Source: a bacterium (GTDB taxonomy: Bacteria > Hinthialibacterota > Hinthialibacteria > Hinthialibacterales > Hinthialibacteraceae). From it: 14,029 nt of DNA. This document shows positions 3 to 13,747 of this stretch, one piece after another. The notes beneath the pieces are model-generated. The model had not been told where the DNA came from, ran no database searches, and worked only from the letters and a program-made list of their open reading frames with translations. Every line of letters begins with the position of its first letter. The first letter of the stretch is position 1. The stretch lies in contig CAXXSM010000039.1 in NCBI GenBank assembly GCA_963663405.2, forward strand, positions 1 through 14,029, in the 5' to 3' direction. Both the position numbers and the translations under genes were made by a program.

Positions 3-1085
3 CTGATCGGCATGAGACAGAAACTGACGCCCACCCCCTACGCGATTCATGCGTCGTCGGCGTCTAGATTAACCAACGGCGCGGTCACGAGTTTAAACTC
101 TCTGCAGGATGATGTCACGCTGCTCGAAGGCTCGAATGTAACGATCACACCGGGCGCTAATTCACTCACGATCGCAGCCAGTGGCGCGCCTGGCCCTCCA
201 GGGCCAGAAGGACCTCCGGGGCCAATGGGGCTACAAGGTGATACTGGACCGAGAGGACCAGAAGGGCCTCCGGGTCCAATGGGGCCTAAAGGGGATACTG
301 GTTATCCCGGTCCACAAGGTGATCCGGGGCCTCAAGGTCCAAAAGGTGATCCCGGTATCCAAGGACTCAAAGGCGAACCGGGTCCACAAGGGCCCAAAGG
401 TGACAGCGGTCCACAAGGGATTCAAGGCGAACCAGGGCCTCAAGGATTCCAAGGTGAGCCGGGTTCTCAAGGGCCCAAAGGTGACATTGGTCCACAAGGG
501 ATTCAAGGCGATCCAGGGCCTCAAGGGTTCCAAGGTGATCCGGGTCCTCAAGGGCCCAAAGGTGACATTGGTCCACAAGGGCCTCAGGGTGAATCCGGTG
601 AAAATCAAATTCGAAAAATATATCGAAGCGCCGGAAAAGGATCAATGATTAATAATCTCAATGAAAATGATATTGTGCCGGGAAGAGAATTGACATTCTA
701 CAAAGAATTCGAAAATACGACGATACGCTTTGCCTATTGTGATAATTTCATGCTACGATGGTTGTCTGGTGATGAAACGAAAGCTGTAAGAATAGAAGTC
801 GTTATTGACAATACTCCTCATCCTCCTGATTCTCCTTCTACTCCAAATGTGTTTTTTGATTTTATTCATAATTCAGATGAGCAAAAAGTTTCTAAAGCTG
901 AACCGTCAACTTTGTTCGCCTATTTAGATAATCTTTCAGTAGGAGAACATACAATAACCCTTAAGGCTGAACAAGTTCATACTTATAGTTTTCCAAATTC
1001 CCAGGAGTTTGTGATAGGTTCATATGGTTCCCGATGGACCATGGAAGCGGAGGAAGTTGAATTAGGAGAGATACCCGTTGAATGA
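3..1085 (+). CDS. Collagen-like (Gly-X-Y) surface/fibre protein, 5'-truncated by the window edge, with a globular C-terminal domain (CTHRC1-C-like)
   Basis: The frame is open from nt 3 (CTG ATC GGC ATG...), so ATG12 is probably internal. The sequence shows an [10 protein letters not shown] motif, then a [31 protein letters not shown] neck-like segment, 47 consecutive GXY triplets (183-605) and a ~160-aa C-terminal domain, with stop TGA at 1083-1085. Confidence 0.9.
183..605 (+). repeat. Collagen triple-helix repeat region (47 Gly-X-Y triplets) containing an 81-bp tandem duplication
   Basis: GAP GPP GPE ... GES GEN runs without interruption. A DNA unit starting CAAGGGCCCAAAGGTGACA recurs at 387, 468 and 549 (period 81 bp = 27 aa). 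Confidence 0.95.
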
Positions 1086-1160: not shown

Positions 1161-2011
1161 ATGAAAACTACCCTTTATGTATGTTTTCTACTTGTGAGTA
1201 TATTCGGATTGACCGCTTATGCGGATTACGCGATTCTGTGGCATACGGTGAATGGCGGGGGAAGCGTCCAACAAACCGGGGGGGATTTTACTATAAGCGG
1301 CACGTTCGGGCAGACCGACGCCAGCGCGGGGTGGCCGGCTGCGCCGTATAAACTCACGGGAGGTTTCTGGTTTGGCGTGTCAGCGGTTCTATACGATCTT
1401 GATTATCTTGTGAACGGTGACGGTTTGGGAAATGGCAGTGGGAAATACTGGCCTACTCCTGATGTATCCACTATTGACGACGGCTATTTCGATGCGCGAT
1501 TCGTTCCGGCGGTGGCTTTGAGCGGGCAAGACATTTATCCCGGTTGGTGCGCGGATAATGATACGTATATCAAACTGGGCCGGTGGTATGAGAATGTCAG
1601 TTGTTATTCGTCCCTAAACTTTTCCAATACCTGCGCTCAATTTGTGAATATTGGAATTCTGACAACCTGTCATCCGTGAACGCTTTGTTAGCGTTATACC
1701 GTGAGGGGGAATGGGACGGAGGAATTACGATTGGCTCCCAAGTCTATACCGTTACCAATAACGATATTCAGGCGGTTATCTGGACGCTGCTGTTCAATGG
1801 CGTTCCCAGCGGAGGCGGTATCTCTTGGCAGCAACCGGTTGTGGATGAGTTATCCAGCTTAGTCAGCGGAATGGCTCCCACTTACATTTCCGGTTCCGAT
1901 ACGCCGATTGTTATTATTATTGACACGACCGATCAGGTGAATTTGCTTGAGGCGCCTTATTGGATGTATGAAGAGTTATTGGCTTTGGGGATTGTGGATG
2001 ATTGTTTGTAG
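1161..2011 (+). CDS. Secreted protein with a putative Cys-Gln thioester (TED/TQXA-like) domain; split by a 1-nt frameshift near 1600-1650 (~283 aa if repaired)
   Basis: RBS AAGGAG precedes ATG1161. Signal peptide MKTTLYVCFLLVSIFGLTAYA|DY is followed by a Gly-rich module WHTVNGGG..GGDFTISGTFGQTDA..YKLTGGFW. WCAD (1545-1556) lies in ORF 1161-1679, while DIQAVIW (1763-1783) and DQVNLL (1931-1948) lie in overlapping ORF 1601-2011. Adding one base (e.g. GTG [G]AA TAT TGG at 1646) joins the two ORFs. Confidence 0.75.
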
Positions 2012-2191: not shown

Positions 2192-2449
2192 TCATTGGTT
2201 TGTACGCTTGGAATGACGCTCGTGTAAGCGCCGCCGGATATCTTTCCAGTCTTCCTCCGTCATCTCACTGGCTTCCGATTGCAGGCCTTCCAGAAGCAAC
2301 GTTTCCAACCGTTCATTGGCTTTTCGTTTTTGATCTTCTCGAAGCAACGCGCGAACGTATTCGCTGACTGTGCCAAATCCGCCGTTTGAGACTTCGCGAT
2401 CAATAAATTCCTTCATACTCTCTGGGAGAGAAATCGTGATGGTAGTCAT
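2192..2449 (-). CDS. parD: Type II toxin-antitoxin ParD-family antitoxin (ribbon-helix-helix, CopG/Arc/MetJ), orphan
   Basis: MTTITISLPESMKEFIDREVSNGGFGTVSEYVRALLREDQ is the RHH pattern of CC2985-like ParD antitoxins, and LETLLLEGLQS matches their C-terminal L..L.EG..S motif. ATG at 2449 is preceded by GGTGA; the ORF track starts at an upstream TTG (2455). Confidence 0.88.
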   Translation of the reverse strand: MTTITISLPESMKEFIDREVSNGGFGTVSEYVRALLREDQKRKANERLETLLLEGLQSEASEMTEEDWKDIRRRLHERHSKRTNQ

Positions 2450-2491
2450 ATGCAATTCACCAGTTCTTCCATGTAGATCGAGATCACAACT

Positions 2492-5423: not shown

Positions 5424-8400
5424 TTATGGTGAAGTGAGTAGGCCTTCCGCGCTTTCTCGTTCTGGTTGTTCCAGTTTGACGCCGAAGAGGTTTTTGATGT
5501 CTTCGACCATCATGTAGAGGGCGGGGACGAGGAATAAGGTGATTAAGGTTGCGAACATGACACCGTATCCGAGGGAGATCGCCATTGGAATTAAGAAGCG
5601 GGCCGAACGGGCTGTTTCATAGATCATCGGCGCCAGTCCAAAGAATGTGGTGAAGGAAGTCAAGAGAATTGGCCGGAACCGCCGGGTTCCCGCCATCACA
5701 AACGGCTTTGAAGGGATCGCCGGTTTTATCCCGATCCTGGTTGGCGGTGTGGACGAGGATAAGTGAGTCGTTCACGACAACTCCCGACAGCGCGACGATG
5801 CCGAACATGCTGATGATGCTGAGATCGTAGCCCATGATGATGTGTCCAAGCACGGCGCCGACAAAGCCGAACGGGATGGCGGTCATCACTACAAGTGGTT
5901 GGACATAACTCCCGAAGGGGATCGCCAGCATCGCGAAGATCGCCAGCATCGCGATCATGAATCCCCGCCATAAACTCTCGAGAGATTCATCCCGTTCCCG
6001 CGATTCCCCCTCCAAGGAATAGCCGAGAGAAGGATAACGGGACAGCAGATCGGGCAGCACGTTCGCTTCGAGATCGGTGAGGACCTTTTCCGCGTTGGTT
6101 ACTTCCGTTTCCACATCGCCTGTTACGTTGACGACTCTGCGGCCGTCTGTGCGGTTGATTTCTGTATAGGCCCGGCCCCGGATCACTTCCGCCGCTTCGC
6201 CGAGAGGGATCTCTCCACCACTCGGCGTACGGATGAGGAGTTCTTCGATGTTGTACTCGGATGTGCGTTCGGATTCCGGCAGGCGGACCATGACCCAGAT
6301 TTCCTCCCGTCCGCGTTGTTGGCGGAAGGCGCGGGCGCCGTAAAACGCGCTGCGCACTTGCTGCGCCAAATCCGAAGCGGTGATGCCCAGACTGCGGGCG
6401 GCGGGTTTCAGTTTCAAGTCGAACTGCGGTTTCCCTAACGTGAATCCATCATCGATATCTTTGACGCCGGTGAATGATTGCAAGGTGTTCGCCAATTCCG
6501 CCGCCGCGGTTTCGAGAACGTCAATATCCGGATGGCTGAGTTCCACATCGATTGGAGAACCGGCGGAAAATCCAGAACTGAAGAGGAAGGTCAACGATTC
6601 CAGACCCGCCATTTCGCCGGTCTTTTCGCGCCAGATCTTGGCGAATTGCGTAGCGGAAATACTTCGTTCTCCGCTGGGCACCATATAGACCTGTACGCTG
6701 CAAAGATGACTCCCAGTCCCACCCCCCGAAGGCCCCGGGCCTCTCCGTCCCGCGTTGTTGCCGACCAACGCCATAATTCCCCGCAGGATATTATCTCCGC
6801 CATTTTCCGCGAGCACTTCCCGCGCGGTTTCCAATAAGCGTTCTTCTACTTTCTTGGTTTCGGCTACGGGCGCGCCAAAAGGCAGGACCGCATTCGCGGT
6901 GACGACATCACCGTCGACGCGGGGGAAAAACGTGAAATTGATGTGGCCACCTACAACCACACCTAGCATCAGGATCAACACCGCCACTCCCGCAGCGATA
7001 GTTAAATACCGATTTCGAAGCGCTAAGCGAAGAAAAGGCGCATAGCAAGTATGAACAAACCACGACAATCCCCGGCTGACCTGTTGCTGCCGCCGGAAGA
7101 GAAACGCGAACAGGCCATGATCTTTCGGCGGGTGTTGATGCCCCAGATGCGCGGGGAGAACGTAGAGCGATTCAATCAGCGAAATCGTAAAGACCGAGAT
7201 AACAATAATAGGGATCACGCGGAAAAATTTCCCCATGATGCCCGTGACGAACATGAGTGGGACAAAGGTCGCTATATTAGTCAGAATCGAAAAGGTGACG
7301 GGCACAGCGACCTGCCGGGCGCCTTGAATCGCCGCTTGGATGTAGCTGTATCCCCGCTGCCGGAGTTCGTAGATATTTTCTCCTACGACAATCGCGTCAT
7401 CGACGACGATTCCGAGCGTGACGATAAACGCGAAGAGCGAGAGCATATTGATCGACACATCAAAAGTGGGAAAAAGAAGAAACGAACCCAAAATCGAGAT
7501 GGGAACCCCCATCATAACCCAAAACGCGAGCCGGATTTCGAGGAACAATCCCAATGTGATGAGAACCAGCGCCAGGCCCATCGACATATTGCGCAACAGG
7601 AGACTGATACGATCGCTCAATAATTCCGATTGGTCTTCCCACATGGCGACACCGACGCCGGGGGGGAGTGTGGGACGCAGGTTTTCGATATAGTCTTTGG
7701 TGATTTGTGCGATTTCGATGGGGGATTGATCACCGGTGCGGTAGACGCTAACGCGGGCGGCGGGCATTCCGTTATAGTATCCCGCTTGGTCTGTATCGCG
7801 GAATCCATCGATAATCGTTCCGATATCGCGCAGCCGGACCTCGGTTCCGTCTTTGCTGCTGATGACGGGGATATCTTCAAACTGGCTGCCGAAATCGCGC
7901 CGTTCCGCGGTGCGCAGCAGAATTTCCCCTCCATCTGTTTTTACACCGCCCGCGGGGATTTCCACCGCGGTTTTAGAGATTTCCTGCGCGATGCCATTCA
8001 ACGTCAGATTGTAGGCGCGCAGATTCTCTTGGGGCACTTCCACCCCAATTTCCAATGGACGGACGCCTTGCATTTCGACATAGGTGATATTCGGATTTTG
8101 GAGAATTTCCTCGCGAACGCGTTCCGCCAGCTGCCGGATGATGTATTCATCCTGATCTCCATAGAGCACGATTGATGTCACTTCGTGCCGGCGGACCAGC
8201 AGACTTACAATCGGGCGTTCCGCGTCTTGGGGGAAGGACGTGATTCGATCGACTTCGTTTTTGATATCTTGGAGGGCTTTTTTGGAATCGGCGCCGGTCA
8301 TCAATTCGACGACGACAGACGCTGATCCTTCGGTCGCTGTCGCTTCGATTCGTTTTACGCCGTCCACACCGCGCACGTTCTCTTCGATCGAAAGAAGGAT

Positions 8401-8607
8401 TCCCTGTTCCACTTCCGCCGGGCTCGCTCCTGGATAGGGGACGCTGATTGTAACGCGGTCCAGTTCAAATTCAGGAAAGATTTCGATCCGGACCTGTGTA
8501 CAGATCATGAATCCGCCCACGAGCAAGATAATCATGAGCAAATTCGCCGCGACCGAATTGTGCGCCATCCACGCGATCGGTCCTGTATCCTGCGTGGGCG
8601 TTTTCAT
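5424..8607 (-). CDS. RND efflux transporter permease (AcrB/AcrD/AcrF family), with an apparent +1 frameshift at ~5700-5702 (~1060 aa if repaired)
   Basis: TM4 reads [17 protein letters not shown]10 reads [11 protein letters not shown], and there are two large periplasmic loops. The TM11 motif RFRPILLTS and TM12 lie in ORF 5424-5699. Removing one T from GCC GTT T GTG ATG restores ...[18 protein letters not shown]. Confidence 0.95.
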
Positions 8608-12091: not shown

Positions 12092-12147
12092 TTGTTAAAG
12101 GTTTACATATCATGCTATAATTCATAATTGTAAACTATAAATGGAGG
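12092..12147 (+). promoter_or_regulatory. Promoter, palindromic operator and RBS of the Xre-ImmA/PIN operon
   Basis: Extended -10 TGcTATAAT (12113-12121) with a weak -35 TTGTTA (12092-12097). GTTTACA (12101-12107) and TGTAAAC (12129-12135) bracket the -10. GGAGG is at 12143-12147. Confidence 0.55.
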
Positions 12148-12155
12148 TCAATAAA

Positions 12156-13252
12156 ATGATTGGCGCCCGTATTAAGATGGCACGGAAGAAGGCGGGATTT
12201 TCTTTGCGGGGACTTGCTGACGCTATAGGAAAAATAGTAACCGCACAAGCCATTGGAAAATACGAACGCGGCAAAGCCATCCCTCGTTCAAGTGTATTGA
12301 TTGCGTTGAGTAAAACGCTAAATGTGTCCATTCCTTTTTTATTAAATACCCAGGGGATTGAATTGGACACGGTGGAGTTTCGTTCGAATTCGGGCACGAC
12401 TAAAAAGGACCGCGCCCGCGTCGAAACCGAGGTCGTGGAATGGGTGGAACGTTACCTTCAAATTGAAGCCATTTTAGGGATCGAAAGCGTGTCCTGGGAG
12501 AAGCCGTTTGGGGAACAAAAAAAAATCGAGCGGATCGAAGACGCTGAAGATGTGGCTGAAAGCGTTCGGGAAAAATGGAAACTGGGGATTGATCCTATTC
12601 CAAATATGACTGAACTGTTGGAAGAAAAAGGCCTAAAAGTACTGATCGTAGACCTTCCAGAGAACGTTTCCGGTCTGACCTGTTTGGTCAAAGGAATGAA
12701 CTATCCGGACGGATTGCCCGTGATTGTGGTGAATCGAGACTATCCATTAGAACGTCGGCGCTTGACCTTGGCTCATGAACTCGCGCATAGGATGATTGAT
12801 TCCGAATGTCTCGAACAAAAAGAACTGGAAAAAGCCGCTCAACGATTTGCGGGAGCGTTTCTTGTTCCAAGAAAACATCTGGAAAAAGAGGTGGGGAAAT
12901 CGCGGCGATCATTTGGGTATAAAGAGCTGATTGGTTTGAAACGATTGTATCGTGTCAGTGGAGCCTCATTATTGGTCCGATTGCGGATATTGGTGTTATT
13001 TCTGAAAACAAATTGGTCTATGCGTTTCAATCCATTGCCCGGACTTGGAGAACGAATGAACCGGAGCCACTCGAAAGATCTGGAAATGAAGGAAAGTGGG
13101 AACCGGCGAAACGGTTTGAACGGCTCTGTTACCGGGCATTGGCGGAAGATCTAATCTCCCTTCCAAAAGCAACCGAACTCTTACGAATTCCATTGGAGGA
13201 CGTTTTTAGCGGTTTGAGGGGGCCTTGCCGGGAACATGCGCATTGTCGTTAG
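12156..13252 (+). CDS. Xre-family HTH fused to ImmA/IrrE (COG2856, DUF955/M78) metallopeptidase; 1-nt frameshift at ~12985 (~365 aa if repaired)
   Basis: N-terminal HTH IGARIKMARKKAGFSLRGLADAIGK.VTAQAIGKYERG. RRRLTLAHELAH contains HExxH, followed by EKAAQRFAGAFLVP. Adding one G (CGG [G]AT) gives RLRDIGVISENKLVYAFQS, which runs into ORF 13013-13252 (RALAEDLISLPKATELL). Start 12156 is preferred because GGAGG lies 8 nt upstream. Confidence 0.9.
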
Positions 13253-13747
13253 TGACACATCCTGTTTAATTGACTTGCGAAAGACAGATTTATTGGAAGC
13301 ATTCGCCCGGCTTCCATACGATATACTGATTTCCGACATCCTTTTCGAACAAGAATTTGTTAAATTCTCTCCAGCGGATCGAATGGCTTTAACCAGCAAC
13401 GGTGTTCAAATAATAGAACTCACGGAATCTGGAATCGAGCGTGTTATAGATATTCAATCCAAGAATACTGCTTTATCCATTCATGATTGTTTTGCTTTTG
13501 TTGTCGTCGAGAATCATCCCGGTGGAATTTTGTTGACTGGGGATAAAGGCTTCGATCTTTGGCGCACCGATCCAGTATTGAAACGCATGGTGTGTTATGG
13601 GTTATTGATGAAATCTATAAACATGGATTAGCGTCTGCGAAAGAATTACATGCGGCTCTCATTTGCTTTGACAATGATGAAACAGTACGTCTTCCCGCAA
13701 ACGATTTACGAATTCGGATTCGGAAGTTTGAGGAATTCTTTGACTAA
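13236..13747 (+). CDS. PIN-domain protein (VapC-like/DUF3368-like putative ribonuclease toxin); 1-nt frameshift at ~13545-13549 (~170 aa if repaired)
   Basis: Acidic PIN motifs VVSDTSCLIDL, EQE, LSIHD and LLTGD are present. One added base gives LLTGDKxLRSLAHRSSIETHGVLWVIDE, joining ORF 13559-13747. It overlaps the upstream gene by 17 nt. Confidence 0.85.

Follow-up and report, generated by a model that had tools for sequence, protein, structure and literature searches.

The gene with which this contig opens ends in a domain that directly follows a long collagen repeat, and the question it raises is whether that domain, here called the head, shares ancestry with the C-terminal domain of the animal protein CTHRC1 and, if so, what a bacterium would use it for. 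The stretch analysed, referred to as the window, runs from the start of the contig over 14,029 bases. A sequence-only reading had pointed to four motifs behind the collagen, in an order that it likened to human CTHRC1. All four are found in that order in the translation of 12..1085, and the motifs that it gave for the human protein match, order included, the human row of a trimmed alignment published as a supplement by Leclere et al. 2020 (PMC7058181). Judged from sequence comparisons, the resemblance of the head to CTHRC1 is more than chance.

The start of the contig cuts the fibre gene at its 5′ end. The source assembly (8.44 Mb in 170 contigs, completeness 82%, contamination 2.4%) holds a single copy of the head and a single copy of the N-terminal module, and the full-length form has to be read from a 555-amino acid public metagenome protein, P0002, which is 99% identical over the head. 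Its order is a hydrophobic signal-like segment, an N-terminal domain of about 110 residues, a short neck, 74 GXY triplets and the head. In a global alignment nucleotides 3..182 of the window correspond to residues 115-174 of P0002, and by that alignment 114 residues at the start of the protein, the signal-peptide-like segment among them, are off the contig. The ATG at position 12 was considered as the true start and rejected, as the frame stays open right up to where the contig begins and P0002 extends 117 residues further upstream; that ATG is internal and equivalent to Met118 of P0002. Counted in the frame of this ATG the collagen run occupies residues 58-198, with X mostly Pro and Y mostly Gln and Pro. 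The head (nucleotides 606-1082) begins QIRK..., immediately after the last GXY triplet. The stalks of the two sequences differ in length, 47 triplets in the window (183-605) against the 74 of P0002 (its residues 175-396), by in-frame blocks of 9 and 18 triplets, which is either real length variation or assembly collapse of repeats.

Features of the window discussed in the text, with positions counted from its first base
Feature	Position	Strand	Remarks
Fibre ORF	3..1085	+	Frame open from base 3; stop codon 1083-1085
3′ end of conserved N-terminal fibre module plus short beta 'neck'	3..182	+	60 non-collagen residues
Collagen triple-helix stalk	183..605	+	47 uninterrupted GXY triplets; Pfam PF01391, E 3.7e-24
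C-terminal head plus stop codon	606..1085	+	159 aa; divergent CTHRC1_C-type by sequence comparison, predicted TNF/C1q-like jelly roll
Signal-peptide ORF	1161-1679	+	75 nt after fibre stop; preceded by AAAGGAG (good ribosome-binding site)
Second ORF, in another frame	1601-2011	+	Overlaps 1161-1679
ParD/RHH antitoxin-like gene	2192-2455	-	No obvious toxin partner called
AcrB-type RND pump ORFs	5617-8607 and 5424-5699	-	Look split near 3′ end
HTH_3 plus Peptidase_M78 (ImmA/IrrE-like) gene	12141-13154	+	
131-aa ORF	13236-13631	+	After HTH_3/Peptidase_M78 gene; no family match

Direct searches with the head alone are silent on its affinity. There is no Pfam match at E<=10, including to PF25815 (CTHRC1_C), C1q (PF00386) and TNF (PF00229), no NCBIfam match and none to PDB sequences at E<=10, and PHROGs give only E 0.13 and 0.16; a search of the whole genome with PF25815 at E<=1 is likewise empty. 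Operational membership of PF25815 is a Pfam HMM score at or above the gathering score, 27 bits, and the window head does not reach it. The searches that go through relatives are of a different kind. With phmmer, 41 relatives of the head were retrieved at E<=1e-3 from 1.84 billion representatives, and PF25815 is present at E<=0.1 in 36 of them, 32 being at or above the 27-bit cut-off; it is missing from P0002 and from four long repeat-rich proteins (P0003, P0006, P0033 and P0039). The relatives' heads align with the window head over their full length at 28-35% identity. An HMM built from 30 related heads, with the window sequence left out, scores 96.3 bits on the window head and no more than 2.8 bits on any of 200 shuffles. 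In an ESM-Atlas feature search the three nearest clusters are animal CTHRC1_C (scores 0.95, 0.95 and 0.94, with 200-205 of 256 features in common). BLASTP aligns the head with a protein of Candidatus Methylumidiphilus alinenensis (from locus L007) at E 5e-15, with 51 of 154 positions identical, and this protein was recognised by eye as a row of the trimmed 'Figure S5' alignment of Cthrc1 C-terminal domains in the supplement of PMC7058181, an alignment that also contains human CTHRC1 and other animal sequences. Independently of one another, the ESM-Atlas features, the phmmer relatives with their HMM and the BLASTP match place the head with the CTHRC1 C-terminal domain family, and its homology to that domain is supported transitively, via intermediate sequences. 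Of the profile comparison that the sequence-only reading had called for, the direct PF25815 match failed to appear and strong matches came through PF25815-bearing relatives; its Cys-poor bacterial CTHRC1-type head behind collagen thus holds at one remove, by the 36 of 41 relatives, the HMM score and the BLASTP match. Going by the same comparisons, the head is a divergent CTHRC1_C homologue that the current Pfam model misses, and not a Pfam-defined member.

How divergent it is can be seen from its motifs. The order characteristic of the family is kept (F-x-K, T-x-I-R, Y-C/S-D-N-F-R, R-W-E, G-x-H-x-I, T-G-W and S-R-W-x-I-E-A-E-E-V), and K33, T38, R41, Y44, D46, R62, G113, H115, G138, W144, E147 and E150 are among the conserved residues present. 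Three positions depart from the family: the Arg of CDNFR is Met49, and the Trp residues of R-W-E and T-G-W are Ile63 and Ser139, respectively. These replacements are probably why the Pfam model misses the head. There is a single Cys, at head position 45; the human CTHRC1 row of the trimmed PMC7058181 alignment has seven. By its residues the head appears as an outlier within the CTHRC1 C-terminal domain family.

The predicted structure is informative on fold and less so on family. AlphaFold2 with a 31-row alignment gave an all-beta sandwich (pLDDT 89.1, pTM 0.83), and on comparison with 48,161 PDB representatives by VIA-align the highest-scoring matches include the Photorhabdus TNF-like lectin PLTL (11.5; rmsd 2.6, 127 residues aligned), the C-terminal domain of Chlamydia Pgp3 (10.7), F-BclA (10.3), the Bdellovibrio Bd2734 fibre tip (9.9), BclA (9.7), Eiger and EDA of the TNF family (9.2-9.0), C1q (8.3) and the NC1 domain of collagen VIII (7.9). 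Foldseek concurs, with Bc2L-C-N, Pgp3 and PLTL at TM 0.56-0.62. The modelled head fold is a TNF/C1q-type jelly roll. In BFVD the matches are confined to collagen proteins of giant viruses and to phage proteins, whose C1q/TNF-like heads are generic and show 6-19% identity. No CTHRC1 chain was found in the PDB, either in the Foldseek and VIA-align lists or in PDB sequence searches with the family profile and with P0011, a strong PF25815 protein: the profile found only Bdellovibrio fibre shafts (8ond at E 0.0033 and 8ojn at E 0.23) and nothing on the head, and P0011 had no match at E<=10. Because generic heads match equally well and no CTHRC1 chain was found there, structure alone cannot single out CTHRC1. 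The structural comparison that the sequence-only reading had called for yields a C1q/TNF-like fold and does not tell CTHRC1 apart from generic TNF, C1q, BclA and lectin heads.

It is from this even spread of structural matches over lectins, Pgp3, BclA, TNF and C1q, together with the lack of a direct Pfam match, that a case could be made for the resemblance to CTHRC1 not being homology and the head being just one more TNF/C1q-fold domain. Such a reading is very improbable in the face of the strong and specific chain formed by phmmer, the PF25815 scan, the HMM and BLASTP, and of the finding that at E<=0.1 neither C1q nor TNF of Pfam turns up in any of the 41 relatives; the profile results obtained refute it. 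The similarity to the NC1 heads of collagens VIII and X and to C1q is one of fold, Pfam C1q being absent from the head and from 41 of 41 relatives, and with the TNF-like lectins (the Bc2L-C N-terminal domain and Photorhabdus PLTL) and Chlamydia Pgp3 there is 8-16% identity and no profile match. Homology of the head to the CTHRC1 domain and its jelly-roll fold, taken jointly, are put forward with high confidence.

Prediction of a three-copy complex of the head gave a score of 0.88, the best of three controls reaching 0.23; at least 86% of contacts agree between runs and partner pLDDT is at least 80. Among proteins solved as pairs of one chain, 20 of 30 reach the mark used for the complex score, and among those solved as single chains 1 of 23 does; these counts hold only roughly here, the prediction having used three copies and a custom alignment. 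The models thus predict a C1q/TNF-like beta-sandwich able to trimerise, keeping in mind that the trimer's pass may reflect likeness to TNF/C1q-type trimers, which are abundant among solved structures.

A bacterial CTHRC1-type head behind collagen is, as a class, already published. Leclere et al. reported the Cthrc1 C-terminal domain in several bacterial metagenomes, some of the proteins having a collagen repeat as well, and proposed a C1q-like model for the animal head, for which HHpred matches included BclA (PMC7058181). In their account the collagen-bearing bacterial sequences nest within the bacterial ones (100% bootstrap) and have collagen most like other bacterial collagens, from which they argue that the pairing of collagen and head arose independently in Bacteria and Metazoa. 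No other paper on the bacterial Cthrc1 domain was found in a literature search. The protein described here has in common with theirs the head family, the bacterial origin and, for their subset, the collagen-then-head order. It differs in that its head is an outlier missed by the Pfam model, and the available portions of that paper do not mention the N-terminal mosaic-fibre module or the contractile injection system (CIS) tail-fibre context of relatives that are dealt with below.

With animal CTHRC1 the likeness extends to a signal peptide (in P0002), a collagen repeat, a C-terminal domain of the same family and a presumed trimer, and the motif order that matches human CTHRC1 is F-x-K, T-x-L/I-R, R-W/I-x, G-x-H/V-x-I/V and S-R-x-I-I/E-E-E-V/L. 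The contrasts are a stalk of 47-74 triplets, the animal one being termed short in PMC7058181, the extra N-terminal module, one Cys instead of seven, and the fusion argued there to be independent; there is no sign here of Wnt/PCP or TGF-beta roles. The candidate identification as an orthologue of animal CTHRC1 was rejected on the Cys pattern, on the long stalk and extra module, and on the independent fusion argued in that paper. Mimicry of the animal protein, which had been suggested for this gene and would have the fibre act on a host's matrix or its Wnt/PCP signalling, draws what attraction it has from the homology to the CTHRC1 head, from the same collagen-head order and from the proposal, in a 2026 catalogue of receptor-binding domains of extracellular contractile injection systems (eCIS; PMC12923769), that eCIS fibres use eukaryote-like domains for host binding. 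We found no evidence for it, and it is highly improbable given that identity is only 28-35% even to other bacterial heads, that the animal-based Pfam model gives no match, that the animal Cys pattern is absent, that collagen-bearing bacterial sequences fall in a bacterial clade with independently acquired collagen (PMC7058181), and that the source genome has no known host association. The result has no bearing on disease or mimicry.

The other end of the protein speaks to what sort of fibre this is. With the N-terminal 175 residues of P0002, 133 proteins were found at E<=1e-3 among proteins of 305-972 amino acids, and in the 120 listed the C-terminal parts comprise a Peptidase_S74 chaperone in 35 and collagen in five; YadA-head repeats, Sortilin/BNR-type propellers, GDSL lipase and FGE-sulfatase also occur. 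Some of these relatives, from Verrucomicrobiota or Phycisphaerales, are named 'tail fiber domain-containing protein'. Four CTHRC1_C proteins (P0020, P0025, P0034 and P0036) have signal-like starts and 20-33% identity to the N module. The closest relative of the module within the lineage, at 60% identity, is in another genome (L011:97-1278, minus strand, in G024), where it lies mid-way in a 393-amino acid protein lacking both collagen and a CTHRC1-like head, which illustrates how the module is used in mosaics.

Design with an N module and a swappable tip is shared with the MAT fibres of Bdellovibrio, whose N domain, next to the cell, is described as invariant and whose tips are exchangeable, two of them being TNF-like (Caulton et al. 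2024; PMC10769870). Unlike MAT fibres the present protein has a collagen stalk in place of a beta-helix or meander, it is present as a single copy and not as a repertoire, there is no known predatory context, and P0002 has no match at E<=1 to NF053851 (Bdello_MAT_N, cut-off 60 bits), which 18 of the 60 N-module relatives scanned, and also P0025 and P0034, match at 16-32 bits, all below the cut-off. It would work like a MAT fibre but is not assigned to that family. Nor does it group with the collagen-like Scl and Lcl adhesins, whose models (NF038329, NF038330 and NF046116) score 80-135 bits, on the GXY region only, against cut-offs of 325-500.

With BclA and F-BclA of Bacillus, which belong to the exosporium and the tip of Ena fibres, there is no Pfam or PDB sequence match and the N-terminal module is different. 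The source, unlike Bacillus, is a diderm and not a spore former, as shown by genes for an RND pump and its outer-membrane factor. An alternative reading has the product as a structural coat or matrix collagen, as in a BclA-like 'hairy nap', a sheath or a biofilm matrix, with a head that only nucleates the trimer and has no specific ligand. We regard that as quite improbable, since homologous heads tip fibres whose job is target binding, the N module is common to fibres with clearly adhesive or enzymatic tips, and no spore or coat context is seen in the window.

The occurrence of related heads in other genomes is patchy. Among 40 lineage relatives (19 of the same family, six of the same order, nine of the same class and six more distant) the head was found in none and the N module in seven, which is compatible with tip swapping or lateral acquisition and is not proof of either, many of the genomes being incomplete. 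Scanning of metagenomes with the window head itself confirmed none of 110 stretches. Seven loci came from species-representative genomes, of Accumulibacter, Methylumidiphilus, other Pseudomonadota and a Clostridia MAG. In three of the seven the head gene is directly downstream of Baseplate_J, gp25 or CIS-spike-tip genes (the CTHRC1_C ORFs being L004:5338-6411, L007:5644-6420 and L008:5416-6351), in a fourth (L003) it comes after a gene for an S74-tipped fibre, and the short flanks of the remaining three have no baseplate, CIS or S74 genes. In 10 of 27 metagenome loci the head ORFs have in common an N-terminus 'MADRPDPYVRK...DWNELQ'. Three of these ten have enough upstream flank to be informative: two (L029:7644-8420 and L034:7626-8456) follow Phage_base_V, Baseplate_J and Collar genes and the third (L039:1330-2109) a Collar gene, keeping in mind that L029 is seemingly the same sequence as L007, so that these two are not independent. 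Three further metagenome head genes (L017, L019 and L022) come after genes for S74-tipped fibres and one (L024) after a second CTHRC1_C gene; others of the head ORFs have signal-like starts and ordinary neighbourhoods.

Several individual arrangements are worth recording. A CTHRC1_C gene is near the type VI secretion genes FHA, IcmF/TssM and VasE/TssK (L031:1502-12208), one of signal-peptide type is preceded by that for a 731-amino acid protein with an animal-type Fibrinogen_C domain (L040:949-3141), and another is followed by that for an H-type lectin protein (L038:840-1862). Tandem arrays of three to nine CTHRC1_C heads, with no stalk, are found in P0005, P0011, P0015, P0018 and P0045, and the P0018 cluster contains a protein of the dinoflagellate Cladocopium. 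Collagen is rare in this company: among the 41 phmmer representatives it is confined to P0002 and P0024, and in the 25 metagenome head ORFs that could be delimited there is no run of four or more GXY triplets.

The baseplate neighbourhoods bring up the alternative that the fibre is borne by a particle, as tail fibre of a prophage or of an extracellular contractile injection system, instead of by the cell surface. Apart from the six loci with Baseplate_J, gp25, spike-tip or Collar genes just upstream (L004, L007, L008, L029, L034 and L039) and the four adjoining genes for S74-tipped fibres (L003, L017, L019 and L022), it has in its favour that the collagen part matches many PHROG tail-fibre families and that the upstream flank of the window gene is off the contig. 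Yet P0002 starts with a signal-peptide-like segment and a secreted-type N module and is without the MADRPDPYVRK-type N-terminus, and it is the proteins with that N-terminus that sit by Baseplate_J and/or Collar genes in L029, L034 and L039. Furthermore, no phage or CIS genes are seen in the window, of which 13 kb is downstream of the fibre gene, and a scan of viral contigs yielded no relative, none of 14 candidate stretches being confirmed. A particle-borne fibre is therefore unlikely here. For the family at large, heads of this type are carried by CIS tail fibres, by mosaic surface fibres that have a signal peptide and, in rare cases, by collagen stalks. A tentative generalisation, which we consider doubtful but worth keeping in view, is that bacterial CTHRC1-type heads are general swappable receptor-binding tips of trimeric fibres, and that the animal CTHRC1 head shares ancestry with this module, transfer being possible either way. 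A literature search found no paper naming CTHRC1 together with 'tail fiber' or 'contractile injection', and in PMC12923769 CTHRC1 is absent from the main text, and CTHRC1 and PF25815 from two supplementary files.

Downstream of the fibre gene, the signal-peptide ORF and the ORF overlapping it have no Pfam or NCBIfam match, and no terminator-like site was found between them and the fibre gene; the two may be one frameshifted gene co-transcribed with it. Beyond the antitoxin-like gene come a 642-amino acid lipoprotein-like ORF without a family and an RND efflux operon (outer-membrane factor, HlyD-type adaptor and AcrB-type pump) with a MarR regulator. The closest relatives of the RND pump are at 65-66% identity and the best named ones, from Acidobacteriota, Candidatus Hinthialibacter, Myxococcales, Oligoflexia and Planctomycetes, at about 59-62%. 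Homologues of the AcrB-type pump are about 1050-1060 amino acids long; here a 996-amino acid ORF ends non-homologously and an overlapping 91-amino acid ORF in another frame resembles the usual last transmembrane helices, an apparent split that is due to a frameshift or to sequencing error. From 12 kb on, the G+C content is lower, at 0.43-0.44, and that region may be a mobile or defence islet.

Taking both ends of the protein together, the product is likely to be a Sec-exported homotrimeric surface fibre composed of the N module, a collagen stalk and a CTHRC1-type head. Three chains would be exported, going by the signal-like start of P0002, and their C-terminal heads would trimerise, as in the predicted model that passed its controls. 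C1q, BclA and collagens VIII and X are established cases of C-terminal head trimers setting the collagen register, and the head trimer here probably sets the register of the triple helix as in C1q and BclA. By analogy with MAT fibres, the N modules, as beta-sandwiches, are presumed to be the cell-proximal anchor at the cell surface. Collagen rises about 0.29 nm per residue, and a stalk of 141-222 collagen residues would present the head's binding surface very roughly 40-70 nm away. For the head itself, the balance tips modestly towards an adhesive, ligand-binding tip of adhesin or lectin-like character. That the ligand could be a glycan is a guess, made because the nearest structural neighbours are lectins; with the loss of three residues conserved in the family, the head may bind something else, or nothing.

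The outcome illustrates that a distant animal-type domain can be recognised from raw sequence, and the window adds to the family a strongly divergent example, missed by the Pfam model, that could help to widen that model. What is new here is the architecture of signal peptide, mosaic-fibre N module, long collagen and head, and its setting among swappable bacterial fibre tips. Were the tentative generalisation on bacterial tips true, it would indicate that the CTHRC1 head, which is still poorly understood, has an activity of lectin or adhesin type. From a wider perspective, the presence of such heads capping tail-fibre genes of contractile injection systems may help in annotating fibres and may guide ideas on the ligand of the CTHRC1 head.
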